This document shows, piece after piece, positions 29,491 through 63,215 of a DNA stretch of 64,000 nt. This stretch comes from Bacteroidales bacterium (GTDB lineage: Bacteria > Bacteroidota > Bacteroidia > Bacteroidales > VadinHA17), in the NCBI GenBank assembly GCA_022865305.1, contig JALHSP010000060.1, positions 39,515 to 103,514 of the forward strand. Direction: 5' to 3'. Position 1 is the first letter of the stretch; each line of letters opens with the position of its first letter. The notes below the pieces were generated by a model, which was not told where the DNA came from, made no database searches, and saw only the letters and a program-made list of their open reading frames with translations. Both the position numbers and the translations under genes were made by a program.

Positions 29491-29547
29491 TTTACCTTTT
29501 AATTAACTATTTTAGAAAATGAGGCTCTTTAAATATTGTGCTGATTT

Positions 29548-29632
29548 ACAGAATCCCTCCGCCGGTATTATCCGGATCAGGTGTAAGGGTATGATCTCAG
29601 CCCGTAGTATTAAGGCACCCCATTTTCCGATA
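29548..29632 (-). ncRNA. TPP riboswitch
   Basis: Minus strand GGGGTGCC...GGGCTGAGATCATACCC..ACCTGATCCGGATAATACCGGCGGAGGGA matches the THI-box consensus. Confidence 0.95.
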
Positions 29633-30127: not shown

Positions 30128-30183
30128 TTCCCCTCCCTGGAGAGCCTGTCCCGACCGAAGGGCGGGAGGTTAGGGGTGGGTTA
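30128..30183. repeat. G/C-rich hairpin element carrying a 25-bp palindromic insertion
   Basis: ttcccctccctggag[agcctgtcccgaccgaagggcggga]ggttaggggtggg. Confidence 0.7.
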
Positions 30184-44227: not shown

Positions 44228-46030
44228 TTAACCTTTTCTGATTGCCCTGAACCAGTTTGGTATGGCATTAAATATAATTATAATAACCGAAATTATGATA
44301 CTTAACGTCAGTATTAGATTGATCAGTCCCGGAATCATTGTTGCAGCTTCACCTACCTGGGGGATATAAATATTTTTTATGTTCAGGAATGCTGCAGTCA
44401 TAGTAGTTATGCCTACAAATGTCATTGGCAAAATTGTCACCCATGCATACTTTGTCCTGCCGCGGTTTATTATAAAAGAGGTCCCTATAGCCAGGGCAAT
44501 TGTGGCAAGTAGCTGATTGGCAGTACCGAACATTGGCCAGATTGTAGCTACTGTCCCGGTATAGATGAAATAACCCCAGGCAAAAACAATCAGGCCGCTG
44601 GTTATCAGGTTTCCCGGCAGCCAGTTGGTTTTCTGAAATGGCGGATAAATTTTACCAAATGCTTCCTGTAGTAGAAATCTGCCGATACGTGTTCCGGCAT
44701 CGATTGTTGTCAGAATAAATAATGCCTCAAACATTATGGCAAAATGGTACCAGTACGACATCAGGTGCTTCATGCCGGGAATAGATGAGAATATATATGC
44801 CATTCCGACTCCCAGAGAAACAGCTCCCCCTGTGCGTCCTGCAATTTTTTCACCAACGCTGGCAGAAAGCTGATCAATATTTGATTCTGTGAAACCCATT
44901 TCATACAGTTTCGGAAGTATTGCCTGGAGCTTTTCAACCGGAACATTTATCTGAAAATAATCTAACGGAAGGAGGCTGGTTGCAGCGATCAATGCCATAA
45001 TGCTGATAGCACCCTCAGTAAGCATTGAACCAACGGCAATAGGCTTTATATGAGACTCTTTCATCACCATTTTGGGAGTTGTTCCGGAACTTACCAGAGA
45101 GTGAAATCCGGAAATTGCACCACAGGCAATAGTAATGAAAAGGTAAGGGAATAATTTCCCCGGAATTATAGGCCCTCCCCCTTTACCGAACTCAGTAAAT
45201 GCCGGCATCTTTATTTCCGGTGCGACAATAATCAACCCTATTGCGAGTAATCCGATTACTGAAATTTTCATAATAGAACTCAGGTAATCGCGGGGGGAAA
45301 GTAAAAGCCATACCGGAAGAACTGATGCAAGAAATCCGTAAACGGCGATAATAATCGTCAGTGTCTTATGATTAAATGTAAACCAGGTTGAAAACTGGGA
45401 ATCAGGTACATATCGGCCAAATACAACTGCAAGTACCAGCATAATTACACCGAATAGTGTTGCTTCAAGTGTTTTGCCTTTCCTGATCTTAAACATCCAC
45501 AATCCCATAATAATTGCAATAGGAATGGTAGATGCAATGGTGAATGTTCCCCACGGGCTTTCAGCCAGAGCATTAACGACCACCAGACCTAATCCTGCCA
45601 GAGCAACAATTATAATCAGTATAATAGCAAAGGTTGTTGTAATACCGCTGACTTTATTGATTTCAGCTTTTGCTATAGCTGCGAGTGACTTACCATCGTG
45701 CTGGACTGAAGCAGTCAATATTACGAAATCGTGGACTGCACCTGCCATAACAGCGCCGATCAGCATCCATAAAAATCCGGGCATGAATCCAAACTGTGCT
45801 GCCAGAACAGGCCCGACAAGAGGGCCTGCCCCGGCAATTGCAGCAAAATGATGGCCGAATAATACCCATTTATTCATTGGATAATAATTCTGACCGTCAT
45901 ACAGCCTGTGTGCCGGGGTTAGCGCCAGATCGTTTGTTACCGCAACCTTTGCCGCAACAAAGCTGAAATAGAGCCTGTAAGCAATTGCAAAAAGGGCTAT
46001 GGAACCGATTACAAATGGCATTGCATTCAT
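44228..46030 (-). CDS. cstA: Carbon starvation protein A (peptide/pyruvate transporter)
   Basis: [33 protein letters not shown]; ATG 46030 preferred. Confidence 0.93.
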
Positions 46031-46097
46031 CTGGCTGATGAAATTAGAAACAATCACCTAAAATAGACATTTCCCCGAATACAAGAAATTCTAATTA

Positions 46098-48044
46098 TCA
46101 CAACCGGTTGATCCTTTTTTTAACCCGTTGATCAATAATTATTGGAACCTGCTCAATGATTGTGTTAGTGGAATCAAGATTAAGCGTCCTGATATCAGTA
46201 ATGCTGAGTTTCCTGAGAAGGCCATTAATGGCAAGGATGAAGTTTTCCCTGTTGGACAGGTTAGCATCACGTGACATAATCCTTTCAATCAGTATAAATT
46301 TGAAATCTGCCGGAATATCATGCTTCCGTAATGAATCAAAGCTGCTTTCAAGCTTTATCTCCCCAGATTTCACAAGGTCCTCAAGCACCTCCCTGAAATA
46401 AAGATTGATTTTTGGATCAACTTTAAATCCTAAATGGAAATCGATTCTGATGAGTATGCCCGGAATAATCTGGGTAACCTGGTAATTAAACCTGTTTGGT
46501 TCATTTACCCTGTCTACATGAAGCAGCCAGTATGTTTTTGCCCTTTTAGGCTGTTTTTGAAAAATAGAATAAATAACTTTCGATTCAACCTGGTCTTTTC
46601 TGTTGGCACGTATTATATATACAAGGTTTGTGGCAAGCATGGGGACAGATTCATCTTTGCTGAGATCCCTGAACAGATCAAGATACTTGTCGAGGTCCGC
46701 AAAAGTAATGTACCGGTTCTTTATTTTTCGTCCGAAATACCAGCCAAACATTATCAGGAAATAAATTGATGCGAGGAAGAGCGTAAACCATCCTCCATAC
46801 ATGAATTTGTGGAGGTTTGCAATCAGGAAGCTTCCCTCGACGGTGAGATAGATCATCAAAAACAACAAAATAAGCCGGTGGTTCAATCCTTTACTGTACA
46901 AATAATATGACAGAAGGAATGTGGTCATAATCATGGTGATCATAATAGCAAGACCATATGCGGCAGTCATATTTGATGATTCTTTGAAAAAGATTACAAC
47001 CAGACTACACGCTATCCAGAAAAACCAGTTAACAAATGGCATATAAACCTGTCCCCTGACATAAGTGGGATGCAATACCTTTATCTTTGGCCAAAAATTA
47101 AGTGAAACAGCCTCGCTTACAAGCGTAAATGATCCGCTGATGATTGCCTGACTGGCAATTATTGCAGCAACTGTTGCCAGAATTATACCGGGTATTAAAA
47201 ACCATTTCGGCATTATTTCAAAGAAAGGATTGATATCCGTACCTGACTCAAAATTGTTCATTAACCATGCTCCCTGCCCGAAGTAATTTAGAAGCAAAGT
47301 AATTTTAACAAATGCCCATGACACTTGGATATTTGTCCGTCCGCAATGCCCTAGGTCAGCATAAAGAGCCTCAGCACCGGTTGTACAGAGAAAAACAGCT
47401 CCCAAAAGAATAAAACCGCCGGGATATTCACTCAGAAACCGGTATGCATAAACCGGACTGATTGCCCGTAAAATATCGGGGTGTAAAAGCAACTGCGAAA
47501 ATCCCAGGATACCGAGTGTTGAAAACCATATAACCATTACTGGTCCAAAGGAGCTCCCGAGAAAATTGGTACCGAATTGCTGGATAAAGAAAAGAACCGC
47601 AAAAATAATAAGAACAATAGGGATAACCGGAATTGAGGGATTATACAGCTTTAATCCTTCAATGGACGAAGTAACGGTGATTGAAGGAGTGATAACACCA
47701 TCTGCGAGAAGAGCAGCCCCTCCTATCATTGTAAGGATGGCAGCCCACGCTGGTTTCTCCTTAATCAGGGCAAATAAGGAAAATATCCCTCCCTCCCCGT
47801 TATTATCAGCCCTTAATGTTATTAAAACATACTTAATTGTGGTAAACAGCGTCAGTGTCCAGAAAATGCACGATAAGCTGCCATAAACAAGTAATTCATT
47901 AAAATTGGCCGATCCTCCGACGATAATAGCCTTCATGGTATAGAGCGGGCTTGTTCCCAGATCACCAAAGACTATTCCCAGGGTTACTAACAGACCGGCA
48001 AGCGAAAGCTTCTTGATAACAGAACTTTGTTCAGTCTCTTTCAT
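46098..48044 (-). CDS. kup: KUP/HAK/KT potassium transporter
   Basis: GIVFGDLGTSPLY, ADNNGEGG, TGAEALYADLGH. Confidence 0.96.
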   Translation of the reverse strand: MKETEQSSVIKKLSLAGLLVTLGIVFGDLGTSPLYTMKAIIVGGSANFNELLVYGSLSCIFWTLTLFTTIKYVLITLRADNNGEGGIFSLFALIKEKPAWAAILTMIGGAALLADGVITPSITVTSSIEGLKLYNPSIPVIPIVLIIFAVLFFIQQFGTNFLGSSFGPVMVIWFSTLGILGFSQLLLHPDILRAISPVYAYRFLSEYPGGFILLGAVFLCTTGAEALYADLGHCGRTNIQVSWAFVKITLLLNYFGQGAWLMNNFESGTDINPFFEIMPKWFLIPGIILATVAAIIASQAIISGSFTLVSEAVSLNFWPKIKVLHPTYVRGQVYMPFVNWFFWIACSLVVIFFKESSNMTAAYGLAIMITMIMTTFLLSYYLYSKGLNHRLILLFLMIYLTVEGSFLIANLHKFMYGGWFTLFLASIYFLIMFGWYFGRKIKNRYITFADLDKYLDLFRDLSKDESVPMLATNLVYIIRANRKDQVESKVIYSIFQKQPKRAKTYWLLHVDRVNEPNRFNYQVTQIIPGILIRIDFHLGFKVDPKINLYFREVLEDLVKSGEIKLESSFDSLRKHDIPADFKFILIERIMSRDANLSNRENFILAINGLLRKLSITDIRTLNLDSTNTIIEQVPIIIDQRVKKRINRL

Positions 48045-48283
48045 GATTTTTCCCGCAATTAAACAGTACTATTTGCCAGAAAAGGAAGCAAAGTTAAAAA
48101 TTAATAAACTCTGCAAAAGGTTAAAGTGATATATTTTTGATGGCTTTCGGGTATGCAAAGTTATTCATTTGGCTATTTTATTGTTTTAAATCAAAGTCAG
48201 GAAAACTATCTTTGTGATCTTAAAGTTCAGAGAAATAAGCTGTCTGATCCGAAATTAAGTTGTGATTTAATTACAGACATAAC

Positions 48284-49405
48284 ATGTTAAGGCAATTGTT
48301 AATCAGCATATTCCTCACCTGTGTATCAGTGTCAGCCAAAGGACAGGACACAGTATCATCGCCCGCAAAGATTTCTCTTCTTTTTATCGGGGATATTATG
48401 GGTCATGATGAGCAGATATTGTCAGCCGAGAACAGGGACACCCGCACATACAGTTATGATGACGTTTTCAGGTATATCAAACCCGTTATTTCAGAAGCGG
48501 ACATTGCAATAGCTAATTTTGAGGTAACTCTTGCTGGTCCTCCCTATAAAGGATATCCCCTGTTCAGTTCTCCGGCATCCCTTGCTGCAGCCTGTAAAAA
48601 TGCCGGAATTGACTACCTGGTCACAGCTAATAATCATGCTGCCGACCGGGGTAAAACCGGGATAGCCGGTACTATAAACAGGCTTGACAGCATCGGAATG
48701 CCCCATACCGGAACATTTCCAGACCAGGCAGCAAGGGACAGTCTCTACCCTCTAATGATTAAGCAATCCGGGGTTTCACTGGCAATTCTTAACTATACAT
48801 ACGGAACTAATGGTCTCAAAGTTCCGGGACCAGTAATTGTCAATATGCTTGATAAAAACCTTATTATCAATGATATCGAGAAAGCCAGACATAAGAATCC
48901 CGATCTGATTATTTTGCTTCTGCACTGGGGAACAGAATATGATACCATTCCATCAAAGATCCAGACAGATCTTGCTGAGTATTTTTTCTCGCAGGGGGTT
49001 GATCTGATAATAGGTTCGCATCCGCATGTCCTTCAAAAAATGGTCTGGCACAAAAGAGATTCTGCTGATAAAGACAGAATTCTGGTTTATTCTCTCGGCA
49101 ATTTTATAACAAATCAGAGAAAGCCGAAAACTGACGGTGGCTCTATGGTAAGAATCGAACTGACCCGGAATGGAAATTCATTAGATGTCTCAGATGCCGG
49201 ATATTACCTTACGTGGGTTTATACACCTGTAGAAAAATACAGGAAAAAGTTTTATATTCTTCCCTGTTCCGAATATGAAAACAAACCTGAATTCTTCACC
49301 GATCCTTCCAGCTACGCAAAGATGAAGAAATTCATAACCGACTCAAGAGCACTGCTTTATGAACAAAACATAAATATACGGGAATTTACTTATATAGTTA
49401 ATTAA
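48284..49405 (+). CDS. CapA family metallophosphoesterase-fold protein
   Basis: FIGDIMGH, TANNHAAD, LHWGTEY, IGSHPHVLQ, YSLGNF. Confidence 0.92.
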   Translation: MLRQLLISIFLTCVSVSAKGQDTVSSPAKISLLFIGDIMGHDEQILSAENRDTRTYSYDDVFRYIKPVISEADIAIANFEVTLAGPPYKGYPLFSSPASLAAACKNAGIDYLVTANNHAADRGKTGIAGTINRLDSIGMPHTGTFPDQAARDSLYPLMIKQSGVSLAILNYTYGTNGLKVPGPVIVNMLDKNLIINDIEKARHKNPDLIILLLHWGTEYDTIPSKIQTDLAEYFFSQGVDLIIGSHPHVLQKMVWHKRDSADKDRILVYSLGNFITNQRKPKTDGGSMVRIELTRNGNSLDVSDAGYYLTWVYTPVEKYRKKFYILPCSEYENKPEFFTDPSSYAKMKKFITDSRALLYEQNINIREFTYIVN

Positions 49406-49414
49406 TTGATAATA

Positions 49415-49540
49415 AACGACGCCGGAGAGCCTGCCCCGCCCAGCGGGGCGTCCAATTCCATCCCGATAGCTATCGGGAGCCATGGTTACATCCATGGAAA
49501 ACATGGGGTTAAAGAATTCAACGCCGGAGGTGTTGAATAA
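49415..49540. repeat. REPIN-like unit (family B) with two palindromic insertions
   Basis: gacgcc-gga-[ins]-ggcgtc ... ccatggttacatccatgg ... ttcaacgccggaggtgttgaa; homologous to 62967-63055. Confidence 0.8.
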
Positions 49541-49642
49541 ATAAATATGATAAAATAAAATTCTTCAACCATTTAGTTTAATCCTGTTTTTATAAATATA
49601 ATTGCATAACAAAGATCAGATATTTACGGTTTGGATAATTTT

Positions 49643-50353
49643 ATGACCGATTCCATAACAATACTTACTGTCACAGCCATCTCCATCGGCTTCCTGCATA
49701 CTATCCTCGGACCTGATCATTATCTGCCATTTATTGTACTCAGCCAGGCGAAAAGATGGACGCTGAAGAAAACCATGTCTATAACATTTTTTTGTGGTCT
49801 TGGCCACGTTTTAAGCTCTGTGATACTTGGCCTCGTCGGTGTTGCTGTCGGAATATCTTTAAAAAAACTTGTCGCAGTTGAATCATTCAGGGGTAATATT
49901 GCTGCATGGCTGTTTATCGCTTTCGGGCTGGTTTATATGGTAATAAGTATAAGAAACCTTATCAAGGGAAGAAAACACAACCATTCACATTTTCATATCG
50001 GTGGAGAAAGCCATTCGCACGAACATGAGCACCACAAAGAGCATACACATATTCATGAGAATGATATAGTCAGAACTACACCATGGATTCTTTTCCTCAT
50101 ATTTGTTTTTGGACCGTGTTAACCTCTTATCCCTATTCTGATGTATCCTGCTGCTGAAAATAATATTCCGGGTGCAGTTCTTGTAACATTGCTATTTTCT
50201 GTAGTGACTATTGCAACAATGATGTCTGTAGTACTGGCATTTAAGCTGGGATTAAACAAAATCAACCTGAAACCGGTTGAAAAATTCAGTCATCTTATTG
50301 CCGGAACAATGATCTTCCTTTCATGTATGGCGATCCAGTTCCTTGGTCTTTAG
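49643..50353 (+). pseudogene. His-rich nickel/cobalt transporter-like membrane protein with one in-frame TAA
   Basis: HTILGPDHYLPF, His-rich loop, then FVFGPC*PLIPILMYPAA continuing in the same frame (TAA 50120-50122). Confidence 0.82.
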
Positions 50354-50435
50354 GCATTTCTTAATGATCCCTGGAGTTTGTGCCGTATCGAATTCACTTT
50401 AAATTATTAGCTTTACAAAAAATAAAAACCATAGG

Positions 50436-51080
50436 ATGAATTACGATTACAATACTCAGCGTAAAAGGATGGCATTGCCTGAATACGGCAGGAACGTTCA
50501 GAAAATGGTTGATCATATCAAAACCATTGAGGACAGGGATGAAAGGAACAGGGCAGCAAAGACAATAATCCAGATAATGGGTAACCTTAATCCTCATCTC
50601 CGCGATATAGGAGATTTCAAGCATAAACTATGGGATCATCTCGCATTAATAGCGGACTTTGAACTGGATATTGACACCCCATTTCCTCCTCCTGAAGCTT
50701 CAAAGTTCAATGAAAAACCGAAGCAGGTACCTTACAAGCAGGGGAATATCAGGTTCCTTCATTACGGAAGAATAATTGAATTACTGATTGACGCTGCTTC
50801 CGGGATGGATGAAGGTGAAGAGAAAGAGTACCTTACTACACTGATAGTGAACCAGATGAAGAAATCATATATTACCTGGAACAGAGGACAGGTTGCTGAT
50901 GAGGTAATAATCGGCGACATGAAGATGTTGTCGGGCGGTAAATTAAAAATGACAGAAGGTGTGAAAATTCTTGAAGTAAAAGAACTTATGCCTCCTGTCA
51001 GAAGAAAGCCGCAAAGAATAACACATGGTAAACAGCTGAATAAACAGTTCAACAAGAAAAAAGGGCATAGCCGTCACTGA
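50436..51080 (+). CDS. DUF4290 family protein
   Basis: YNTQR..MALPEYGRNVQKMV...HKLWDHL; usual neighbour of murA in Bacteroidota. Confidence 0.88.
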   Translation: MNYDYNTQRKRMALPEYGRNVQKMVDHIKTIEDRDERNRAAKTIIQIMGNLNPHLRDIGDFKHKLWDHLALIADFELDIDTPFPPPEASKFNEKPKQVPYKQGNIRFLHYGRIIELLIDAASGMDEGEEKEYLTTLIVNQMKKSYITWNRGQVADEVIIGDMKMLSGGKLKMTEGVKILEVKELMPPVRRKPQRITHGKQLNKQFNKKKGHSRH

Positions 51081-52384
51081 TGGGTACTTTTATTGTACAA
51101 GGCGGAAAATCACTCAAAGGAGAAATAACGCCGCAGGGAGCCAAGAATGAAGCTTTACAGGTTATCTGTGCCACCCTCCTTACCTCTGAAAAAATCACAA
51201 TAAAAAACATACCTGATATTAGCGATGTCAAAAAACTAATTGAACTTATTGGTTGTCTTGGCGTTAAGATAACCATGGAATCAGATTCAGTTACAAGTTT
51301 TGAAGCTGCAACTATCAATCTCGATTATCTTCAGACAAAAGAATTCATATCTCAGAGCTCCAGCTTAAGGGGATCGATTATGATTGTTGGTCCGCTTCTG
51401 GCACGTTTCGGAAAAGCATTTATTCCAAAACCTGGTGGTGATAAGATAGGACGACGCAAGGTCGACACCCATTTCATTGGATTCAGGAAATTGGGAGCTG
51501 AATTCAACTATGACTCTTCCGATTCCTTTTTTAAAGTCGAAGCCCCCTTTCTGACCGGGACCTATATACACCTTGATGAGGCATCAGTAACAGGAACAGC
51601 GAATATTATTATGGCTGCTGTTATGGCAAAAGGCCGTACAACAATTTATAACGCTGCATGTGAACCTTACGTGCAGCAGCTTTGCAGAATGCTTGTTAAA
51701 ATGGGAGCAAAAATTGAAGGTATTGGTTCTAACCTTCTGTATATCGACGGAGTAACCGGACTTAAAGGATGTATGCATACTATTCTGCCGGACATGATTG
51801 AAATCGGCTCATTCATCGGTCTTGCTGCAATGACTGAATCGGAAATCACAATTAAAAATGTATCATACGAAAATCTTGGCATTATTCCCGATTCATTCCG
51901 TAAACTAGGAATCAACTTTGAACGGAATGGCGATGACATTCATGTTCCTCACCAGGACCATTATGAAATAGAAACGTTTATTGATGGTTCGATTATGACT
52001 ATCGCTGATGCCATATGGCCGGGCTTAACACCTGATTTATTAAGTGTTCTGCTTGTTACTGCCACCCAGGCTAAAGGTGCTGTCCTGATCCATCAGAAAA
52101 TGTTCGAAAGCAGGCTTTTCTTCGTGGACAAACTGATTGATATGGGTGCTCAGATAATCCTTTGTGATCCTCACAGGGCAACCGTAATCGGCCTAGATAA
52201 AATGATAAAATTAAGGGGAACAGTGATGTCATCGCCTGATATCAGGGCAGGAGTTGCTCTTCTTATAGCTGCATTATCGGCAGAGGGGAAAAGCGTAATA
52301 CATAATATTGAACAGATTGACAGGGGCTACCAGGATATCGATACTCGGCTTAACGCTCTTGGTGCGGATATCAGGAGAATCTGA
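51080..52384 (+). CDS. murA: UDP-N-acetylglucosamine 1-carboxyvinyltransferase
   Basis: GAKNEAL, PGGDKIGRR (Asp at the fosfomycin-target Cys position), ASVTGTANI, DIRAG. Confidence 0.97.
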   Translation: MGTFIVQGGKSLKGEITPQGAKNEALQVICATLLTSEKITIKNIPDISDVKKLIELIGCLGVKITMESDSVTSFEAATINLDYLQTKEFISQSSSLRGSIMIVGPLLARFGKAFIPKPGGDKIGRRKVDTHFIGFRKLGAEFNYDSSDSFFKVEAPFLTGTYIHLDEASVTGTANIIMAAVMAKGRTTIYNAACEPYVQQLCRMLVKMGAKIEGIGSNLLYIDGVTGLKGCMHTILPDMIEIGSFIGLAAMTESEITIKNVSYENLGIIPDSFRKLGINFERNGDDIHVPHQDHYEIETFIDGSIMTIADAIWPGLTPDLLSVLLVTATQAKGAVLIHQKMFESRLFFVDKLIDMGAQIILCDPHRATVIGLDKMIKLRGTVMSSPDIRAGVALLIAALSAEGKSVIHNIEQIDRGYQDIDTRLNALGADIRRI

Positions 52385-52401
52385 AATTCCTTAAGTATTT
52401 T

Positions 52402-52530
52402 GGCACAAGGGCGCAGGGGCTCAGGGGCTCAAAGGCAAAAATTGCTTTTTAGTATTCATCCTGTTTCGCCTTTATGCCGTTACGCCTTTATACCTCTGTG
52501 CCTATATGCCTTTGCGCCTTTGTACCTTTA
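52402..52530. repeat. Oppositely oriented 8-bp tandem repeat arrays
   Basis: ggcacaag/ggcgcagg/ggctcagg/ggctcaaa/ggcaaaa (52402-52440), then eight cgccttta-like units (52467-52530). Confidence 0.8.
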
Positions 52531-52535
52531 TCTAC

Positions 52536-52576
52536 CTGCCAAATTGTCAAATATATCTCCATGGCAGACATTTTGT
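52536..52576 (+). promoter_or_regulatory. Putative sigma-54-like promoter and upstream dyad for grpE-dnaJ
   Basis: ctgccaaattgtca, then tGGcagacattttGT (GG-N10-GT). Confidence 0.4.
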
Positions 52577-52610
52577 TAATAATCAAATATTAATGAGAAA
52601 AATTTGAGTG

Positions 52611-53255
52611 ATGGTAAAGAAAAAAACACCTGAACAGGAGGAGCAGAAACACAAAAAGCAAACTGAAACAGCTGATAATAAAGAAAATAACAACACTCAG
52701 GAAATTAGCGACAAGGAAAAATCAGATATTCCGCCGGTGACTGATCAGGAATCGCTGGTAACAGAAACATCTGCGCCGGAGGGTATTGTATCTGACAAAG
52801 TTGTTGCTGAAGAGAAATCTGCCGAAGAAAAACTGGCAGAGATGCAGGATAAATATCTTCGTTTATCTGCAGAATTTGATAATTACAGGAAAAGAACACT
52901 GCGAGAGAAAATGGAGTTGTCAAAATATGCCAGTGAGGATATACTCCTTAAGATCCTGCCGGTTATGGACGATTTCGAAAGAGCCCTTTCACTTATGAAT
53001 ACTGTAACTGATTGTGTTGCAATGAAGAACGGGATTGATCTTATTTACGTGAAATTTAATGAATTCCTTAAACAAAACGGAGTTAAAGAGATTGAATCCC
53101 TTAATTGTGACTTTAATTTTAATCTTCATGACGCTGTGGCAAAAGTCACAGTGCAGGAAGATGAAAAGAAAGGAAAAATAATTGAGGTGATACAAAAGGG
53201 TTATTATCTCAAAGATAAGATTATCAGGCACTCAAAGGTAGTTGTTGGAGAATGA
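52611..53255 (+). CDS. grpE: Nucleotide exchange factor GrpE
   Basis: YLRLSAEFDNYRKR, LPVMDDFERA, QKGYYLKDKIIRHSKVVV. Confidence 0.97.
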   Translation: MVKKKTPEQEEQKHKKQTETADNKENNNTQEISDKEKSDIPPVTDQESLVTETSAPEGIVSDKVVAEEKSAEEKLAEMQDKYLRLSAEFDNYRKRTLREKMELSKYASEDILLKILPVMDDFERALSLMNTVTDCVAMKNGIDLIYVKFNEFLKQNGVKEIESLNCDFNFNLHDAVAKVTVQEDEKKGKIIEVIQKGYYLKDKIIRHSKVVVGE

Positions 53256-53308
53256 ATTTAACGCCCGGTTGCACATGAATGGGGTGACTGCAAAATAAAT
53301 TAAAGCGG

Positions 53309-54460
53309 ATGGGAAAAAGAGATTATTACGAAGTGCTCGGGGTATCCAAAAATGCCTCAAAGGAGGAGATCAAAAAAGCCTACAGGAAGCAGGCATTGAA
53401 ATATCATCCTGACAAGAATCCCGGGGATAAGAAAGCAGAGGAAAATTTCAAAGAAGCTGCTGAAGCGTACGAGGTTTTAAGTAATGATGAAAAGAAATCC
53501 AGGTACGATCGCTTTGGTCATGCCGGCATGGGTGGAGCGGGTAATGGATTCAGCGGTGGTGGGATGACCATGGAAGACATCTTTTCATCTTTCGGTGACA
53601 TTTTTGGTGATGCCTTCGGTGGATTTGGGGGGGCATTTGGAGCAAGCAGACGGTCAGGGCGGAGAACCAACAAAGGAAGCAATCTCAGGGTAAAAGTGAA
53701 GCTGACACTCCATGAGATCGCAACAGGTGCAGAGAAAAAAATAAAGGTTACAAAATACGATACCTGTAATTCTTGTGGCGGAACGGGAGCTGCTGATTCA
53801 AACAGCATGTCAACTTGCTCTACCTGCCGCGGATCCGGACATGTAACAAGAGTCACCAATACCATGCTTGGACAGATGCAGACTACTTCCGTATGCCCCT
53901 CATGCGGGGGAGAAGGCAAAACAATAACAAAAAAATGTCCTTCATGTTATGGAGAGGGTATAGTTCAGAAAGAAGATATAATAAAAATCAATATACCTGC
54001 AGGGGTTGGCAAAGGTATGCAGATGACTGTCAGCGGTAAAGGGAATGCACCAAGACGAGGCGGGGTTTACGGTGATCTGCTGGTAGTAATAGACGAGGAG
54101 GAGCATCCCGATCTTATCCGGGAGGGTAATGATCTGATATATAATCTGTTTATAAGCATCCCTGATGCTATTCTGGGTACTCATGTCGAAGTCCCCACAG
54201 TCGATAATAATGTGAAAATAAAGATAGAGCCGGGCACTCAGCCTGGTAAAATTCTCCGGTTGAGAGGTAAAGGATTACCTGAAGTGAACGGCTATGGCAG
54301 AGGCGATTTACTTGTTAATGTAAACGTATGGATCCCTAAAAGCATGACCCGGGAAGAAGCAAAAATCGTTGAAAAATTCAAAGAATCCGAATCTTTCACA
54401 CCAAAACCGGATAAAAGCGATAAAAACTTCTTTGAAAGAATGAGAGGATACTTCGAGTAG
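53309..54460 (+). CDS. dnaJ: Chaperone DnaJ
   Basis: J domain with HPD, G/F-rich region, four CxxCxGxG repeats. Confidence 0.98.
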
Positions 54461-54472
54461 ATTTTCTTCTTA

Positions 54473-54572
54473 CTCTGTGACCCTCTATGCCTTCTTCGGA
54501 TTTCCTCTGTGCAACTAAAAAAAATAAGAACTTACACAGTGTTGCACAGAGAAGACACAGAGATACACAGAG
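54473..54572. repeat. Inverted ctctgtg / cacagag short-repeat arrays
   Basis: ctctgtg, ctctatg, ctctgtgcaac on the left; cacagtg, gttgcacagag, cacagag, cacagag on the right. Confidence 0.7.
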
Positions 54573-54618
54573 TTTTTATATATTTACTCTTCATTTTAAA
54601 ATTAAATCAGAATTCTCT

Positions 54619-55527
54619 ATGTCACTTTTTGAAGCAAGGAACATTACCAAACAATTTGCCAGCACTGTAGCGCTCGATAAAGTCAGCATCTCAGTGCCTG
54701 AGCAATGCATTTACGGTCTCCTTGGTCCCAATGGGGCCGGTAAAACGACGCTTTTAAGGATAATCAACCAGATAACCGGACCTGATTCCGGTGAAATGTT
54801 CCTTAACGGTAAGAAACTGACACCGGATGATGTCCTCGGGATAGGTTATCTCCCTGAAGAACGCGGCCTGTATAAAAAGATGAAAGTGGGTGAGCAGGCT
54901 CTATACTTTGCTCAGCTGAAAGGACTTACAAAGGCCGAAGCTATGAAAAGGCTTAAATACTGGTTCAGAAAACTTGATATCGTGGACTGGTGGGGCAAGA
55001 AAGTTGAAGAGCTTTCAAAAGGAATGCAGCAAAAAGTACAATTCATAACTACTGTTCTTCATGAACCTAAACTGATCATTTTTGATGAACCATTCACAGG
55101 TTTTGACCCTGTAAATGCAAATACTATAAAAAATGAAATCCTGTTCCTCAGGGAAAGGGGAGCAACAATATTATTTTCAACTCATAACATGGGATCGGTT
55201 GAGGAATTATGTGATAATATCACCCTGATAAACAAGGCAAAGACAATACTTGAGGGCAGGGTTGATGAGATCCGCAAACAATGGGCAGCAAATGAATTTG
55301 ATCTTGTTTTCCAGGGAAATGTTAAAATTGAAGAAAACGGAAAATACAAAATTCTCAACCATAAGTTTGAAGATGATCAAAGTACCATCAGACTTAAAAC
55401 GGCAGGGGATATTGCTTCAAATGATATTCTGAAAACTGCTTTAAATGCAGGCAGAGTTGTTTCCTTCAATCCTGCACTTCCGTCAATGAATGAAATATTT
55501 ATTAGGATAGTTGAATCGCGCAATTAA
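54619..55527 (+). CDS. ABC transporter ATP-binding protein (NatA/YhaQ-like)
   Basis: GPNGAGKTT, GYLPEERGLY, LSKGMQQK; ATG 54619 preferred. Confidence 0.93.
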   Translation: MSLFEARNITKQFASTVALDKVSISVPEQCIYGLLGPNGAGKTTLLRIINQITGPDSGEMFLNGKKLTPDDVLGIGYLPEERGLYKKMKVGEQALYFAQLKGLTKAEAMKRLKYWFRKLDIVDWWGKKVEELSKGMQQKVQFITTVLHEPKLIIFDEPFTGFDPVNANTIKNEILFLRERGATILFSTHNMGSVEELCDNITLINKAKTILEGRVDEIRKQWAANEFDLVFQGNVKIEENGKYKILNHKFEDDQSTIRLKTAGDIASNDILKTALNAGRVVSFNPALPSMNEIFIRIVESRN

Positions 55528-55546
55528 GAAACTGAAACCTACGAAT

Positions 55547-56905
55547 ATGAATAAGATATCTGTAATAATTAAAAGAGAATACATGACAAGGGTCCGGAAA
55601 AAGTCATTCATAATAATGACTATTCTGGCTCCGCTATTAATGGCCGGTTTAATAGTAACTTCAATTCTACTGACTTTGAGTAAAGACAGGGATTTTAAGA
55701 AGATCGCTGTTATTGAGGATGGATCAGATCTTTTTAAGAATGTTGACCTGGACTCGGAAGATGCGGATTATGTGTACCTGGAAAATGTCAAGCTAGCCGA
55801 TCTTAAAGAGAATTTTGAGCAGGCCGGATACTATGGAATACTTTATATTTCACGGGAGATCATAAATACACCTAACGCTGTCGAGCTGATTTCAAAAAAA
55901 ACACCACCTTTCTTTGTTATTGATGATATTTCCAATAAGCTTGAAAAGGAAATAGAGAGGCAGAAGCTCCTTGCATATAACATCCAGAATCTCGATGAGA
56001 TAATGAAGAATATCAAAACAGATGTTTCTGTTAAAACAACCCTGATCAATGCTGCGGGCGAGGCAACAGAGACCAGCTCAATAATTGCAATGATCCTTGC
56101 CTATATCGGTGGTTTCTTAATGTATATGCTTGTTTTTATGTTCGGTTCCCAGGTAATGAGAGGTGTTATAGAAGAAAAGACAAGCAGGGTAGTCGAGGTG
56201 ATTGTTTCCTCGGTAAAACCGGTACAGCTGATGATGGGTAAAATTATCGGGATTGCCCTGGTCGGATTAACCCAGTTTTTAATTTGGATATTCCTTACAG
56301 CCGCAGTTGTAGGTGTTGTACAAGCCACGGTTCTTAAGAAAACCGATATGGCAGAGATCACTCAGAATCTGCCTCAAAATGTTATGGTAGAAAATCAGCT
56401 TACATCTTCTGCACCACAGGCTGGTGAGGTATCTCCTGACCTTGCTGAGTTTGCAAAGGTTTTTGAGAATGTAAAGAACCAGAATTGGCTGTTAATAATA
56501 ACCTCATTCATATTTTATTTTATTACAGGTTATCTTCTTTATGCCTCAATTTTTGCCGCAATAGGTTCGGCAGTCGATAATGAGACTGAAACACAGCAGT
56601 TTATGCTTCCTGTCACAATACCTATAATATTAGCATTGCTGGTAGCAATGGCAACTATGCAGAATCCAGAAAGTTCAGTATCATTCTGGTTTTCAATCAT
56701 TCCGCTCACCTCTCCTATTGTTATGGTAGCGAGGATTCCTTTTGGAGTACCTGGCTGGCAGATCGCTCTTTCAATGTTCCTGCTGGCAATAACCTTCTTA
56801 GGCTTTGTATGGATGGCAGCAAAAGTCTATCGCACAGGAATTCTTATGTATGGGAAGAAAACTTCATGGAAGGAAATATGGAAGTGGCTGAGGTATAGCG
56901 GGTAA
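55547..56905 (+). CDS. ABC transporter permease (NatB/YhaP-like)
   Basis: IIKREYMTRVRKKSF, GVIEEKTSRVVEVIVSSV, YRTGILMYGKK. Confidence 0.92.
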   Translation: MNKISVIIKREYMTRVRKKSFIIMTILAPLLMAGLIVTSILLTLSKDRDFKKIAVIEDGSDLFKNVDLDSEDADYVYLENVKLADLKENFEQAGYYGILYISREIINTPNAVELISKKTPPFFVIDDISNKLEKEIERQKLLAYNIQNLDEIMKNIKTDVSVKTTLINAAGEATETSSIIAMILAYIGGFLMYMLVFMFGSQVMRGVIEEKTSRVVEVIVSSVKPVQLMMGKIIGIALVGLTQFLIWIFLTAAVVGVVQATVLKKTDMAEITQNLPQNVMVENQLTSSAPQAGEVSPDLAEFAKVFENVKNQNWLLIITSFIFYFITGYLLYASIFAAIGSAVDNETETQQFMLPVTIPIILALLVAMATMQNPESSVSFWFSIIPLTSPIVMVARIPFGVPGWQIALSMFLLAITFLGFVWMAAKVYRTGILMYGKKTSWKEIWKWLRYSG

Positions 56906-56906
56906 A

Positions 56907-56958
56907 AGGCAGAAGGCAGTAGGCAGTAAAACCGTGTAACTCCGTGTTACCCCGTAGT
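56907..56958 (+). repeat. Short tandem repeats (7-mer and 10-mer)
   Basis: aaggcag aaggcag taggcag, then ccgtgtaact ccgtgttacc ccgtagt. Confidence 0.6.
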
Positions 56959-56984
56959 AAAAAAAGGATTTAAAAAATAATACC

Positions 56985-58160
56985 ATGTCAAAGATTCTGG
57001 TTATCGACGATGAAAAAGCCATCCGGAACACTCTGAAGGAAGTTCTGGAATATGAGAAACATGAGGTTGATCTTGCTGAAGACGGGCCATCAGGAATCGA
57101 ACTTTTCAATGCCAATACTTATGATATTGTCCTTTGTGACATTAAGATGGCCAAGATGGACGGAATCGAGGCCCTTCAGAAGATAAATGAAATTTCCTCA
57201 AACACACCTGTTGTAATGATCTCGGGCCACGGCAACATCGATACTGCCGTTGAAGCTATCAAGAAGGGGGCTTACGATTTTCTTGAAAAACCCCTCGACC
57301 TTAACAGGCTGCTGATAACTATCCGCAATGCGACAGATAAATCAACGCTTGTCAGCCAGACACAGGTTTTGAAAAACAAGGTCAGTAAAATGTATGAGAT
57401 TGTGGGAGAATCGGAAGCAATCAGGAAAGTTAAGGAGATGATAGACAGGATTGCTCCCACCGAAGCAAGAGTGCTGATAACAGGTGCCAACGGAACAGGA
57501 AAGGAACTTGTAGCTCGCCAGATCCATGAAAAAAGCAGCAGGGCAAAAGCCCCGTTTGTAGAGGTCAACTGCGCTGCCATACCTTCTGAACTTATTGAAA
57601 GTGAGCTTTTCGGTCATGAAAAAGGTTCGTTCACCTCGGCAATAAAACAGAGAATCGGTAAGTTTGAACAGGCTAACGGGGGAACCCTTTTCCTGGATGA
57701 AATTGGCGATATGAGCCTTTCCGCACAGGCTAAAGTCCTGAGAGCTCTCCAGGAAAACAAGATAACAAGGGTTGGTTCAGACAAGGATATTCATGTTAAC
57801 GTGAGAGTGGTCACAGCCACCAATAAAAACATAAAAAAGGAAATTGAAAACAATACCTTCCGCGAGGACCTCTACCACAGGCTGAGTGTAATTTTAATCC
57901 ATGTTCCCACACTTAATGAACGGCAGGAAGATATTCCTATTCTTGCTGAACATTTCAATACGGTGATATGTACTGAATACGGGATGAGTAAGAAGATAAT
58001 TAAAAAGGACGCAATAAAAGAGTTGCAGAAAATTGAATGGACCGGTAATATCCGTGAATTCCGGAATGTCCTTGAAAGGCTGATCATTCTATGCAAAGAT
58101 GAAATCACCGGTGCTGATGTAGTTGCGTACGCACGCCCGGTCTCAGGCGGTAATGTATAA
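56985..58160 (+). CDS. Sigma-54-dependent response regulator (NtrC/NtrX-like) without an obvious C-terminal HTH
   Basis: Receiver (VIDDE, CDIKM), GANGTGKE, ESELFGHEKGSFTSA, FLDEIG, WTGNIRE; ends soon after the AAA+ domain. Confidence 0.92.
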   Translation: MSKILVIDDEKAIRNTLKEVLEYEKHEVDLAEDGPSGIELFNANTYDIVLCDIKMAKMDGIEALQKINEISSNTPVVMISGHGNIDTAVEAIKKGAYDFLEKPLDLNRLLITIRNATDKSTLVSQTQVLKNKVSKMYEIVGESEAIRKVKEMIDRIAPTEARVLITGANGTGKELVARQIHEKSSRAKAPFVEVNCAAIPSELIESELFGHEKGSFTSAIKQRIGKFEQANGGTLFLDEIGDMSLSAQAKVLRALQENKITRVGSDKDIHVNVRVVTATNKNIKKEIENNTFREDLYHRLSVILIHVPTLNERQEDIPILAEHFNTVICTEYGMSKKIIKKDAIKELQKIEWTGNIREFRNVLERLIILCKDEITGADVVAYARPVSGGNV

Positions 58161-58174
58161 CTTTTTCAATTAAT

Positions 58175-59080
58175 TTATTTTCTCCTCCAGAATTTAATAT
58201 CATTCATCGGATACTCAAGCTTGTAAGATATTTCAATTTCTCCTGAAGAAATATCAATAAATAGTACCTCATTCTGAGGATGATTAACTAAAATATAACA
58301 ATCCGATTCAGCATCATATCCCGAGATGCAGGCATAATAATCATCACGTTGTTTAATTTCCACACTGCTTATCTGCGATCCGGTTTCCGGATCAAAAACC
58401 TCTATATAATTTCTGTCAGTATCCAGAGAATAAGTCAATCCTATAAGAGTCTTATTATCAGGATTATACACTATATTATTAAGGATTTTCCCGATGTAAA
58501 CCGTTTTGACAACAGTGCCGGTAAAAGTGTTAATTGTTATTAATTTGTAATCAGCGCGTAGCATGACATAACTTTTTTCCTCCTGCTCATAATAATTGGT
58601 GCAGACAATGACACCATCTCCAAGATCGACCTGGTTTTGAGAAACTATAGTTCCTGACTCCAGGTTGACCCTTATAACATAATTGGTGTAGATAACAGGA
58701 TTAGTCTCATAAGAAATGACAGTATATATTCCAATAAGCACATTATCGTTACTGTCGATGACAGCCTGGGAGAGGTATCCCGGGAGTTTAATAGATCTTA
58801 AAAGGTTACCTGTTTCGGGATTAACCAGCCTGAATACTGAATCGCAATCAACATACCCGTATCCCCTGCTTGTTGGATCGAACACTGTCGAGCCCAGCAC
58901 ATAGCATTCAACCGGGGTGGTATTGACGACACCCGAATCAAGTTTGATAGTTACCATCTCGGAACCTTTGGATCCCTGTATTCCGGTAAGCATCAGTGAA
59001 TTGATGCTGTTATCGTTTTGTTTTGTGCACGACACGATTATCAGAAACAAAATCCCAACAAGCAAGTTTTTCATTTTCAT
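58175..59080 (-). CDS. Hypothetical lipoprotein, probable beta-propeller
   Basis: Lipobox IVSC; repeated (V/I)(N/D)xxTG blade-like motifs. Confidence 0.65.
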   Translation of the reverse strand: MKMKNLLVGILFLIIVSCTKQNDNSINSLMLTGIQGSKGSEMVTIKLDSGVVNTTPVECYVLGSTVFDPTSRGYGYVDCDSVFRLVNPETGNLLRSIKLPGYLSQAVIDSNDNVLIGIYTVISYETNPVIYTNYVIRVNLESGTIVSQNQVDLGDGVIVCTNYYEQEEKSYVMLRADYKLITINTFTGTVVKTVYIGKILNNIVYNPDNKTLIGLTYSLDTDRNYIEVFDPETGSQISSVEIKQRDDYYACISGYDAESDCYILVNHPQNEVLFIDISSGEIEISYKLEYPMNDIKFWRRK

Positions 59081-59131
59081 ATAGATCTTATTTTAACTTA
59101 CTCTTTCGCAATAGAACAAAGGTACAAATAA

Positions 59132-59163
59132 AAGGAACAGAAGACTTACGGCTTCTGTTCCTT
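59132..59163 (-). terminator. Intrinsic terminator-like hairpin
   Basis: aaggaacagaag-N8-cttctgttcctt with T-rich tail on the minus strand. Confidence 0.7.
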
Positions 59164-59226
59164 AATAAATAACTAAATGAATTATCCATCATCTAATTAG
59201 AGATAGATTCTGTGTTTGTCAATTGG

Positions 59227-59835
59227 TCAGAATTGTATGGTCAGCGGAATAACAAAACCATAGAATAAAAATGAAGCACCATTCCCTCCTGAAAAGATTA
59301 CCTGGGCTTGCGGATGTATACCAACCGGACCGATTTTACCGTAAACACCTATTGAGCTCATGGCACCTAATCCAAAGGAGGATTTCTTTTCATAGATATC
59401 TACAACAGGAAGTGGAGATTCACGGTAAAAAGCGAAGTATTCTTTATAGCTGAATACACCTATAGATAGTAAACTAGTAACACCGAAGAATTTACCCTTG
59501 AATTTTGGGCTTATTCCTGCATAGACTCCACCTCCGTTCATTTTATAGTCAGTTGTAGCATCATACTCATCCCAGCATTTTTCAACTAATGTGCCGAATG
59601 TAAAATCGATAAAATTTAGTTTAGAGGGCATTATGAATCTAAGGTCTACTCCAGCCATTAGCCTATCACTACTTAGCCCCCAGGGACTCTTATTATTTAA
59701 GTAGTTATCTTCATTAAGGTTATTCTTATGATAAATTAATCCGACCTCAACCTGGATTTTAGAATCTTTTTGAGTTTCCTGTCCAAACGTCGGAATAGAG
59801 ATTAGAAAGATTAAAAGAAAATTGATCTGTTTCAT
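59227..59835 (-). CDS. Hypothetical outer-membrane beta-barrel protein
   Basis: Signal peptide, alternating amphipathic strands, C-terminal Phe. Confidence 0.6.
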   Translation of the reverse strand: MKQINFLLIFLISIPTFGQETQKDSKIQVEVGLIYHKNNLNEDNYLNNKSPWGLSSDRLMAGVDLRFIMPSKLNFIDFTFGTLVEKCWDEYDATTDYKMNGGGVYAGISPKFKGKFFGVTSLLSIGVFSYKEYFAFYRESPLPVVDIYEKKSSFGLGAMSSIGVYGKIGPVGIHPQAQVIFSGGNGASFLFYGFVIPLTIQF

Positions 59836-59846
59836 ATAGCTTAGTT

Positions 59847-61592: not shown

Positions 61593-62013
61593 TTCATTGT
61601 TTTTTAATTTGCACCTTTAAAAAATTGCTCTCTCAAGCAAAGTTTATCCCCGGCATAATTTCGGGACCCGGGGACTTCACTTCTCCCGTATTTTCTGAAT
61701 TACTGTACTTCATTCAGAAAATAATGATGCAATAGCACTTTTTACAGCAGCGAGATATATTTTTAAAGGTTATACTTCAAGTTATTCCACAATACTTTAA
61801 TAAACCATAAATAACCAGCACAAATATCAAAACGTCTTAAACCCGTTAAATTCCGTGATTAACCTTCACAAACTCACATTAAATAAAATAATCTTTCGAT
61901 TGCAGATCGAATTGTACTATAAAATTAAAGCTAAATTTTATCAAATTCAAATTTTTTTGTCAGAATTTTAAAAATATTATTTCAACTGCCGTATGCGGTT
62001 GAAACATGTGTTA

Positions 62014-62137
62014 ATCTGCAAACAGACCGCCACAACGTGGCTCAGTCTCGTAGTGACTACCTGCTTGTAGAAAACAACCAATCAATCATGTTCAAGTTCC
62101 GTAGAGCCTGCCCCGCATTAGCGGGGAGCGGCCTGTT
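62014..62137. repeat. REP-like family A copies downstream of tnpA
   Basis: Forward copy 62014-62042, reverse copy 62044-62072, interrupted reverse copy 62095-62137. Confidence 0.75.
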
Positions 62138-62140
62138 CGA

Positions 62141-62599
62141 TCAAATCCATTCAAACAAGTATTTTGGATCATATTCTACATCAAATTTTTCAAGTAATTT
62201 AAGGTATTCATTCTTGAATGTGGCTTTTCTGTGATGCTCTTCCTGTGAATTTATATATTGAATTACTTCATTGATCTGGGAATGGCTATATGAAAATGCG
62301 CCGTATCCTTCCTGCCATTGGAATTTACCAGGCAGCCATCTCTTGTCGTTTATAAATTTAGATGCGTTTGCCTTGATATCCCTTAATAAATCTGGTAATG
62401 CCTGTGAAGGTTCATATCCGATAAAAATGTGAACATGATCAGGCATATAATTTATTGCCAGCAATTTATGTTTCCGATTTTGAATTATCCCAGTGGTATA
62501 TTTTTGCAACTCCTCTTTATGTTTTATGGGAATTACATTTTCGCGTCCTATTGGAGAGAAAACCAGATGAAGGTAAATTCGGGTATAGGTATTTGCCAT
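62141..62599 (-). CDS. tnpA: IS200/IS605-family HUH (Y1) transposase, REP-associated type
   Basis: YLHLVFS, HUH motif DHVH, FQWQEGYGAFS, catalytic Tyr in QYINSQEEHH; no tnpB. Confidence 0.93.
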   Translation of the reverse strand: MANTYTRIYLHLVFSPIGRENVIPIKHKEELQKYTTGIIQNRKHKLLAINYMPDHVHIFIGYEPSQALPDLLRDIKANASKFINDKRWLPGKFQWQEGYGAFSYSHSQINEVIQYINSQEEHHRKATFKNEYLKLLEKFDVEYDPKYLFEWI

Positions 62600-62658
62600 A
62601 CTAGTAAGTATTTAGTTATTATGTTCAAAATACAATTTAAACAGCGAAACATATAAAT

Positions 62659-62940
62659 ATGACCATTCAGGTACCCACCGCGTGGTTTAAATGTAAAAAT
62701 ACATATTTTTTCTACAAACAGACCACTGCTATGCGGTTCAAAAACATCATCACATGCATTATTCTACAAACAGATCACCGCTACGCGGCTAAAAAACATC
62801 ATCACATGCATTATTCTACAAACAGGCCGCCACCACGCGGCTCAGTAATAACTTAGTTGATTTTGAAGAGTCCCGTAGTGACGACCTGTTTGTAGAAAAA
62901 AGATCGGAGATTGATTTCCAAGCTCCACAGGCACTGTCTA
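62659..62940. repeat. REP-like family A array upstream of tnpA (52-bp period)
   Basis: ttctacaaacag plus hairpin at 62710, 62762 and 62814 (degenerate copy near 62659); reverse copy 62869-62897. Confidence 0.85.
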
Positions 62941-62966
62941 ATGGCATTATTACCATTATGAGGTCA

Positions 62967-63178
62967 GAAGATGCCGGAGGCATCTAAGTATAATATCCAT
63001 GGTTACATCCATGGTTAATTGCAGGTAGTATCAGACAACACCGGCGGTGTTGAAGAATTATAATAATAAACATCCATCTTTAAATAAACAACTTCAACCC
63101 ACTCCGGGATTGAGAAGAAACACTCCTCCTACCCCGTATGTAACCGGGGCTATTAGACTTTAAAGCCTCCGGCTTTAG
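62967..63178. repeat. Inverted pair of about 90-bp REPIN-like units (family B)
   Basis: gatgccggagggcatc...ccatggttacatccatgg...caacaccggcggtgttgaa and its diverged reverse complement at 63094-63178. Confidence 0.7.
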
Positions 63179-63215
63179 AAAATCAAAAAACCGGTTAGAT
63201 GAAGATGTGTAATGA

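Follow-up and report, generated by a model that had tools for sequence, protein, structure and literature searches.

The window, the whole stretch of 64,000 nucleotides that was analysed, lies on contig C23 of a 4.98-Mb assembly (39% G+C, 176 contigs), and the homologues of a protein encoded in the neighbourhood all come from metagenome bins labelled Bacteroidales, Bacteroidia or Rikenellaceae. A short palindromic unit with the consensus AGCCTG-YCCCG-loop-CGGGR can be read directly at three intergenic sites (beginning at 30143, 49428 and 62105; Table 1). Its 11-base core, AGCCTGYCCCG, matches the window at these three positions, all on the + strand, and gave no match in 100 dinucleotide-preserving shuffles of the window. 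The original prediction had described this module at three places as a minimal mobile element inserted into the hairpins of other repeats, and all three sites were confirmed with the letters it had given.

Table 1. Positions of the unit, its hosts and associated features in the window
Feature	Position	Strand	Reading
Unit, site 3	30143..30167	+	AGCCTG + TCCCG-ACCGAAGGG-CGGGA, T..A type
Host of site 3, family A	30130..30182	+	CCCCTCC-loop-GGAG/unit/GG-TTA-GGGGTGGGTT
Unit, site 1	49428..49448	+	AGCCTG + CCCCGC-CCA-GCGGGG; 20 bases + closing G, perhaps the host's
Host hairpin 'a' of site 1	49418..49452	+	GACGCC-GGA-G..GCGTC, split by the unit
REP doublet, Y1-associated family	62016..62075	+	CTGCAAACAG..GTAGTGACTACCTGCTTGTAGAAAAC
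Host of site 2	62096..62137	+	degenerate REP of the Y1-flanking family, GTTCC-GTA-G/unit/GAGC GGCCTGTT; compare GTCCCGTAGTGACGACCTGTTTGTAG at 62870
Unit, site 2	62105..62126	+	AGCCTG + CCCCGC-ATTA-GCGGGG
Y1 (HUH) transposase gene	62141..62599	-	152 aa; PF01797, 84 bits
Three tandem REPs and inverted partner, upstream of the Y1 gene	62710..62899	+	TTCTACAAACAG + hairpin
Empty paralog of hairpin 'a'	62970..62984	+	GATGCCGGAGGCATC, followed by hairpins CCATGGTTACATCCATGG and CAACRCCGGNGGTGTTG as in the site-1 composite

Site 1, which is preceded by a gene of the PGA_cap family, reads GACGCCGGAG-AGCCTGCCCCGCCCAGCGGGG-CGTCC in full and occupies the first of three hairpins in a composite repeat (49418-49535) found only twice in the genome, the other copy being located at 62955-63075. 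Alignment of the filled hairpin with its empty counterpart in the second copy left a gap of 20 columns exactly at the unit. Deletion of 49428-49447 in silico gave GACGCC-GGA-GGCGTC, the hairpin named in the original prediction, with a DNA folding energy of -6.0 kcal; the empty paralog had been overlooked there. Another hairpin module, TCCCGA-loop-TCGGGA, stands beside site 1 at 49461-49478; it has no AGCCTG head, is missing from the paralog at 62955-63075, is present in some and absent from other copies of a MITE of genome G033 (L396, L406-L410) and has matches of 89-100% in several genomes of the genus.

Site 3 (full reading CCCCTCCCTGGAG-AGCCTGTCCCGACCGAAGGGCGGGA-GGTTAGGGGTGGGTT) lies in an element of family A that fills the 59-base gap before a gene resembling O6-methylguanine methyltransferase. 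Here, too, removal of the unit (30143-30166) leaves a host hairpin, CCCCT..AGGGG/CCT..AGG, with -5.7 kcal (DNA fold), as had been proposed. Far from being a rarity, this host is where the unit is most often found in this genome (G000): 13 of the 25 genomic copies reside in family-A hairpins (CCCCTCC-loop-GGAG/unit/GG-N3-GGGGTGGG and close variants), five stand behind a second hairpin module, ACTTGTTCCGCGAAGCGGA, mostly within family-A-like elements, three belong to family B (CCCCCTCT..AGAGAG/unit/GGG..GGGGTGAG), one occupies hairpin 'a' (site 1), another a REP (site 2), and two are solitary. Family A comprises at least 13 empty elements of 26-27 bases and about 15 filled ones of 42-52 bases. 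When the unit was removed in silico, 13 of the 25 joined flanks fell at or below the 5th percentile of folding energy of 2000 random intergenic controls from this genome (median -4.6 versus -1.1 kcal for the controls); many of these copies share one host family and are not independent. Since ACTTGTTCCGCGAAGCGGA directly precedes the unit in five copies (C96, C128, C66, C77 and C157), modules of this kind can stack in tandem. Loops of the CGAAG type recur in the ACTTGTTCCGCGAAGCGGA module, in family B and in many units; mini-hairpins with a GAA loop are unusually stable in DNA.

Site 2 (GTTCCGTAG-AGCCTGCCCCGCATTAGCGGGG-AGCGGCCTGTT) lies 15 bases past the stop codon of the Y1 transposase gene. 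Deletion of 62105-62125 restores a hairpin, in line with the original prediction, but a weak one (GTTCC-GTA-GGAGC, -2.4 kcal, DNA fold). The original prediction had not recognised this gene as encoding a transposase. The Y1 protein scores 68.6 bits with the IS200 model (cut-off 55) and 29 bits with the REP-transposase model (cut-off 80), and its stretch YINSQEEHH fits the signature Y---Q--HH, which Quentin et al. give as that of subclass 1.2 (PMC6006769). The gene has REPs on either side, each consisting of CTACAAACAG followed by a hairpin, and arrays of this REP also surround its orthologs (73-83% identity) in nine other genomes of the genus. The segment 62016-62900, with a Y1 gene and its REPs, resembles a REPtron.

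A search with the pattern AGCCTGYCCCG-N3-14-CGGGR yielded 25 copies in this genome, 290 matches in 43 of the 61 genomes of the genus (0-28 per genome) and 415 matches in 76 of the 251 genomes of the order, representing 66 of 183 genera, while the reversed pattern, used as a control, matched twice in the genus and six times in the order. Further copies of the module, for which a genome-wide search had been suggested, thus occur in the genome, the genus and the order. All genomes compared are metagenome bins, from which repeats and transposase genes are often missing. The head AGCCTG, present in every copy by definition of the search, and the stem base are constant in the comparisons across genus and order, and the loops are lineage-specific; the dominant loop differs from genome to genome (CTCAAG in G020, CTTCGG in G051, TACCGTAGGT in G033, TTCTAAA in G285), which points to lineage-specific bursts. 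On the basis of crude ORF-based genes, 33 of 36 copies were intergenic, two intragenic and one at a contig edge, and 22 of the 33 intergenic copies lay downstream of the preceding gene and in its sense. The orientation bias within tandem gene pairs was weak (15 versus 7). Hairpins of family B were found in 12 convergent and two divergent gaps. A bias with respect to the replication strand was considered for the complete genome G062, where the strand of the units seemed to alternate blockwise, and rejected: sampled GC skew switches near 1.35 and 2.9 Mb, and the orientation of the unit ignores the arms, one of which carries about six copies on the minus and five on the plus strand. AGCCTG followed by a perfect 6-bp stem occurred at 37 sites, 17 of which were the unit and the remainder random-looking, and a role of AGCCTG as a general partner of hairpins was rejected, the hexamer being absent from the top hexamers.

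The make-up of the unit and its flanks was tallied for 136 distinct copies from eight genomes, many of which share a host family, so that the counts are not independent. The unit measures 21-28 bases including the closing base. Its closing pair is T..A in 78 copies, C..G in 48, T..G in seven and C..A in three; 126 copies thus have a Watson-Crick pair and seven a wobble, consistent with the co-variation of the stem end noted earlier from three copies. The rule that the unit always follows (G/T)AG did not hold: the base directly before it is G in 59, A in 42, T in 28 and C in seven copies, and the preceding triplets include GAG (35), CAA (21), GAT (13), GAA (13), CAT (12) and others. The base at position -2 is A in 118 copies and the base following the unit is G in 91, the preferred target being A-N^G. 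At the 3' junction an uncertainty of one base remains, as the last stem base may be the unit's own (replacing one G of the host) or the host's. The unit has no terminal inverted repeats, and no target-site duplication was seen at its junctions in the MITEs H1 (genome G020) and G033 or in the pair within the window.

Similar tenancy was observed in other genomes, and the hosts belong to unrelated repeat families, as the original prediction had stated: GC-rich hairpins, the REP beside the Y1 transposase gene and AT-rich MITEs. G020 harbours the unit in the AT-rich MITE H1, in a host of the form GCTCCGAAG..AGCG that resembles the host of site 2, and in A-like hairpins; G051 and G062 in hairpins of the CCTTCCCCC type; G285 and G249, from different families of the order, in a homologous MITE with terminal inverted repeats; G033 in a MITE of 165 bases; and G153 in A-like hairpins and as solitary copies. 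The boundaries of the unit were identical in at least five unrelated hosts, and those originally chosen from the window held across all hosts examined. By eye, the host hairpins (30130-30182 in the window, family A of this genome, L054-L070 of G051 and G062, and L270-L298 of G153) have one layout in common, a pyrimidine arm followed by the complementary purine arm and, after a short linker, by a G-rich tail, which is the mirror image of the purine arm and neither a direct nor an inverted repeat of it (CCTTTCCCC..GGGG..GGGAAAGGGGG; CCTCCCC..GGGGAG..GGAGGGG; CCCCTCC..GGAGGGG..GGGGTGG) and appears to change together with the arm across four host families. A hairpin with such a mirror tail would correspond, in layout only, to a fold-back purine-motif triple helix. 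In L265 (G285:C524), two MITE copies stand head to head with one hairpin in common, and AGCCTG pairs with CAGGCT within the resulting perfect palindrome.

Three of these hosts gave exact pairs of filled and empty copies that differ by the unit alone, and on these pairs the case chiefly depends: H1, the G033 MITE and the hairpin pair of the window (49418-49452 versus 62970-62984). Among 31 aligned copies of H1 in G020, 29 were occupied (13 by an exact unit, 16 by a degenerate or variant one) and two were empty, the filled form being ..GGTATGAT/AGCCTGCCCCGCTCAAGCGGG/GGAACC.. and the empty form ..GGTATGAT/GGAACC... The H1 junctions showed neither microhomology nor even a one-base repeat. Over the flanks, the two empty copies share 96.8% and 95.7% identity with their nearest relatives, which are filled, and only 90.4% with each other, which indicates two separate events at the same position; the unit was likely lost twice, although the H1 tree is too short for good resolution, with strong support for 2 of its 28 inner branches. 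In five of the 16 degenerate or variant H1 copies (L315, L318, L319, L326 and L329), GCCTG at the position of the unit is joined to another hairpin, CCTGTC-GGCA-GACAGG, with the head kept and the hairpin exchanged. The G033 MITE has 25 copies, 12 filled and 13 empty. One filled copy (L391) and one empty copy (L398) are identical apart from 26 bases that replace a single G, and identity is about 99% among the filled copies, the empty ones being diverse, which points to a single gain of the unit followed by a burst as the probable history. For the G285 MITE no empty copy was apparent among 40 matches, which, judged by match span, cover about the full length of the query. In H1, the G033 MITE and the window paralog, the A at position -2 is already there in the empty copies. 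Because all these filled/empty pairs are paralogs, they do not distinguish gain from loss.

Empty alleles at the same locus in close relatives had also been anticipated. Contigs of four public sequencing runs (X2, X5, X6 and X7) were compared with positions 44500-63200 of the window and differed from it by whole blocks; no allele lacking the unit alone was seen, which is the chief weakness of the case. X2 gave short pieces only. In X5-X7, three independent sediment runs whose relatives are about 90-93% identical to the window, 44 other letters join 49385 to 49557 and replace the 171-base hairpin cluster around site 1 (49386-49556), and therefore this composite of three hairpins (a, b and c) and two guest modules is itself an insertion or a variable segment. 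Likewise, 61974 is joined to 62970, skipping 995 bases (61975-62969) with site 2, the REPs and the Y1 gene; a further joint, of 62077 to 62868, is supported by short sides of 32-60 bases and may stem from other REP loci. These block differences around sites 1 and 2 show that the region turns over; they do not demonstrate that the unit moves. In other species of the genus the flanking genes are about 65-76% identical, and consequently their intergenic DNA cannot be aligned with that of this genome. The gap orthologous to site 3 was identified at 30 loci, of which 14 besides that of this genome were read (14 on the opposite strand and one without the upstream gene were left out); these gaps measured 0-246 bases and were not alignable, and a candidate empty allele in G021 (..GGAGAGGGGTTAGGGGTGGGTT at the position of site 3) was rejected as too diverged.

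The position of site 2 next to a Y1 gene raises the question whether the unit is the cognate REP of this transposase, a reading to which its REP-like architecture, in which a hairpin comes after a short conserved head (as set out in PMC8266576), and a degenerate unit seen by eye in the REP beside the ortholog in G054 would lend support. We consider it highly improbable and largely refuted. The site-2 unit is lodged as a guest inside a REP of the CTACAAACAG type, and it is arrays of the latter that surround the orthologs in nine genomes, with no intact unit within 1.5 kb. None of 58 other Y1 loci (29 in the genus and 29 in nine unit-rich genomes) had a unit within this distance. Two genomes (G010 and G064) have the ortholog and no units, and G020, at 97% completeness, has 28 units and no match to PF01797, an observation that makes a role of Y1 somewhat less likely, given that bins often lose transposase genes. 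Nor did the numbers of units and Y1 genes correlate across 61 genomes (Spearman rho -0.10, p 0.44), a relation that the original prediction had proposed to check for HUH genes; genomes with a Y1 ortholog had a median of four units versus two in the others (61 genomes, p 0.37). An HUH enzyme as the mover, which had been suggested as a possibility, thus finds no backing in these data, and action of the adjoining Y1 gene on the unit is without support. Between pairs of units in this genome (C96 and C52) and in G153 (C15) lie genes for a DAHP-synthase family protein, a LolA-like protein, OMP decarboxylase, a release factor, a DUF2851 protein and a TPR-SpoIIE protein; these are housekeeping genes, and no nuclease or transposase was among them.

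The unit is discrete, has exact boundaries, resides in many unrelated hosts, forms filled/empty pairs and is distributed across the order. Of the idea of a mobile parasite of hairpins, the discrete and nested nature of the unit and its filled/empty pairs have held up, but not its movement by an HUH enzyme. On balance we lean towards the view that the unit is a very small non-autonomous mobile element that enters as a block at A-N^G and is moved in trans. Such an element, 21-26 bases long, would carry the invariant head AGCCTG; in the hairpin after it, the stem base YCCCG..CGGGR would be conserved apart from a closing pair that co-varies, and the outer stem and the loop would be free to change. 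It would enter in one piece without target duplication, replacing or pairing with one G, its later absence being equally exact, and its usual landing places would be MITEs and the 3' arms of hairpins already present. Having settled in a repeat, the unit is multiplied together with it. Since amplification of host repeats explains most copies, independent insertions are few, roughly one per host family, or about 12-15 families in eight genomes. A trans-acting protein might recognise the head and the stem base on folded single-stranded DNA, and might cut and rejoin both sides as Y1/HUH enzymes do with REPs and the ends of IS200/IS605. The one-base ambiguity at the 3' junction does not fit cleanly with any known cut-and-paste scheme. 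A bolder version, which we put forward only tentatively and hold to be doubtful, is that the unit represents a new class of ultra-small transposable elements specific to Bacteroidales, parasitic on REPs, MITEs and hairpin elements and served by an order-wide enzyme, other than the Y1 transposases found here, that would excise and insert the unit exactly at A-N^G on folded single-stranded DNA, with the first stem base matched to the target nucleotide.

Rather unlikely, in our estimate, is a scenario without any dedicated enzyme, in which template switching or short-patch gene conversion in the course of replication or repair transfers the block from one hairpin-forming repeat to the next, eased by the purine-rich surroundings GAG..GG of many hosts, and hairpin bypass removes it again. 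The sequence GAG/../GG indeed surrounds the unit in many hosts, no transposase is linked to it, and other hairpin modules behave alike, as seen from the polymorphism of TCCCGA..TCGGGA in the G033 MITE, the tandem position of ACTTGTTCCGCGAAGCGGA before the unit and the different hairpin after GCCTG in the five H1 copies. However, the junctions in AT-rich MITEs (GAT/../GGAACC and CAT/../TAGC) are without microhomology, the same boundaries recur in at least five unrelated hosts, and passive copying does not predict that the non-palindromic AGCCTG should always accompany the hairpin across 66 genera. Less likely still is a mainly functional role, in which the unit would serve as a DNA hairpin that binds a protein or as an RNA hairpin (AGCCUG plus stem) for stability or processing, which selection keeps and host repeats carry, insertions then being recruitment and not self-propagation. 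Such a function would agree with the order-wide conservation of the head and the stem base with free loops, several dominant ones of the TTCG or GAAA kind, with the mostly intergenic location downstream and in the sense of the preceding gene (22 of 33, crude ORF-based genes), and with the distribution of family-B hairpins between convergent and divergent gaps. It is opposed by the lack of a trailing T-run after the hairpin, by the weak orientation bias within tandem gene pairs and by copy numbers of 0-28 among species of one genus, unlike those of a housekeeping site. Moreover, no Rfam family reached its gathering score at the three sites, and a search up to E 10 around site 3 gave nothing beyond a chance match (E 8.9). 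A functional site would in any case be compatible with mobility.

The statement in the original prediction that no named class exists for such an element was too strong, as REPs inserted in small palindromes are already in print. According to PMC3733652, REPs are nested in small palindromes in Thermomicrobium roseum (GTAG-23) and REP dimers in longer palindromes in Anabaena variabilis and Halothiobacillus neapolitanus, and 'CGTC' REPs occur without a dedicated transposase. REPs are described as palindromes of 20-50 bases headed by a short conserved motif; they occur in multiple copies, mostly between genes and downstream of them, and are presumed to move on single-stranded DNA (PMC8266576; PMC3733652). 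The unit resembles them as a short, mainly intergenic palindrome present in multiple copies (25 in this genome). It differs in its head, which is AGCCTG and not GTAG or CGTC (the GTAG at site 2 belongs to the host REP), in its low copy number (0-28 per genome) and mostly single copies instead of inverted doublets as in REPINs, and, with respect to REP/RAYT (TnpA-REP) systems, in that no Y1 gene is flanked by it and the counts are uncorrelated. The ends of IS200/IS605 elements carry a hairpin and a short 5' foot sequence, insert strand-specifically without target duplication and are excised exactly (PMC8266576; PMC6006769). Miniatures derived from such elements would share with the unit the absence of target duplication and the exact filled/empty junctions, whereas the unit is a single hairpin without distinct left and right ends, each with a subterminal hairpin, has a loose target (A-N^G) in place of a fixed tetranucleotide, shows the one-base 3' ambiguity and has no transposase in G020. 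Unlike MITEs, in which it is a guest, it has neither terminal inverted repeats nor a target-site duplication.

Small dispersed repeats (SDR) of heterocyst-forming cyanobacteria, attributed to Elhai et al. (2008), are said to measure 21-27 bases, several of them forming hairpins, and reportedly lie dispersed and nested in other repeats and show signs of mobility, no enzyme being known for them. In size, hairpin, nesting and the lack of a known mover the unit would be close to these SDR as reported, and they appear to be its nearest match in behaviour, although it occurs in a different phylum and apparently has a different sequence. The unit also recalls the organelle genomes of fungi and algae, whose AT-rich spacers harbour mobile, nested GC-rich palindromic clusters and double-hairpin elements of unknown mechanism; in contrast to these, it is bacterial, and the sequences are unrelated. 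Literature searches with the letters of the motif (by title) and with words for nested palindromic repeats in Bacteroid* genomes (by title and start of abstract) returned no related paper among the matches listed. Our best reading is that the kind is already known, small nested palindromic repeats having been described in print, and that the unit is a variant spread through Bacteroidales.

The mobility of repeats of some 20 bases has been an open question from their first description onwards, and PMC8266576 still terms the dissemination of REPs unresolved. What is gained here is a sharply defined unit for which at least three unrelated hosts provide clean filled/empty pairs, together with a target preference and a distribution over 66 genera, data sufficient for the design of oligonucleotide substrates and for phylogenetic profiling in search of a protein that acts on the unit. 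The data also show layering of small repeats, with a hairpin inside a REP or a MITE, and such layering bears on the annotation of intergenic regions and on the assembly and binning of Bacteroidales metagenomes.

Two further features of the window were recorded. Group II intron RNA domains were found at 63216-63778 on the - strand (RF02001, 152.6 bits; RF01998, 69.7 bits; RF00029, 50.1 bits), with about 186 bases between the matches to domains 1-4 and domains 5-6; as this leaves no room for a reverse-transcriptase ORF, the intron is ORF-less or cut down. A TPP riboswitch (59.8 bits, gathering score 54.3) lies at 29537-29632 on the - strand, upstream of an ORF of 809 aa (27061-29490).
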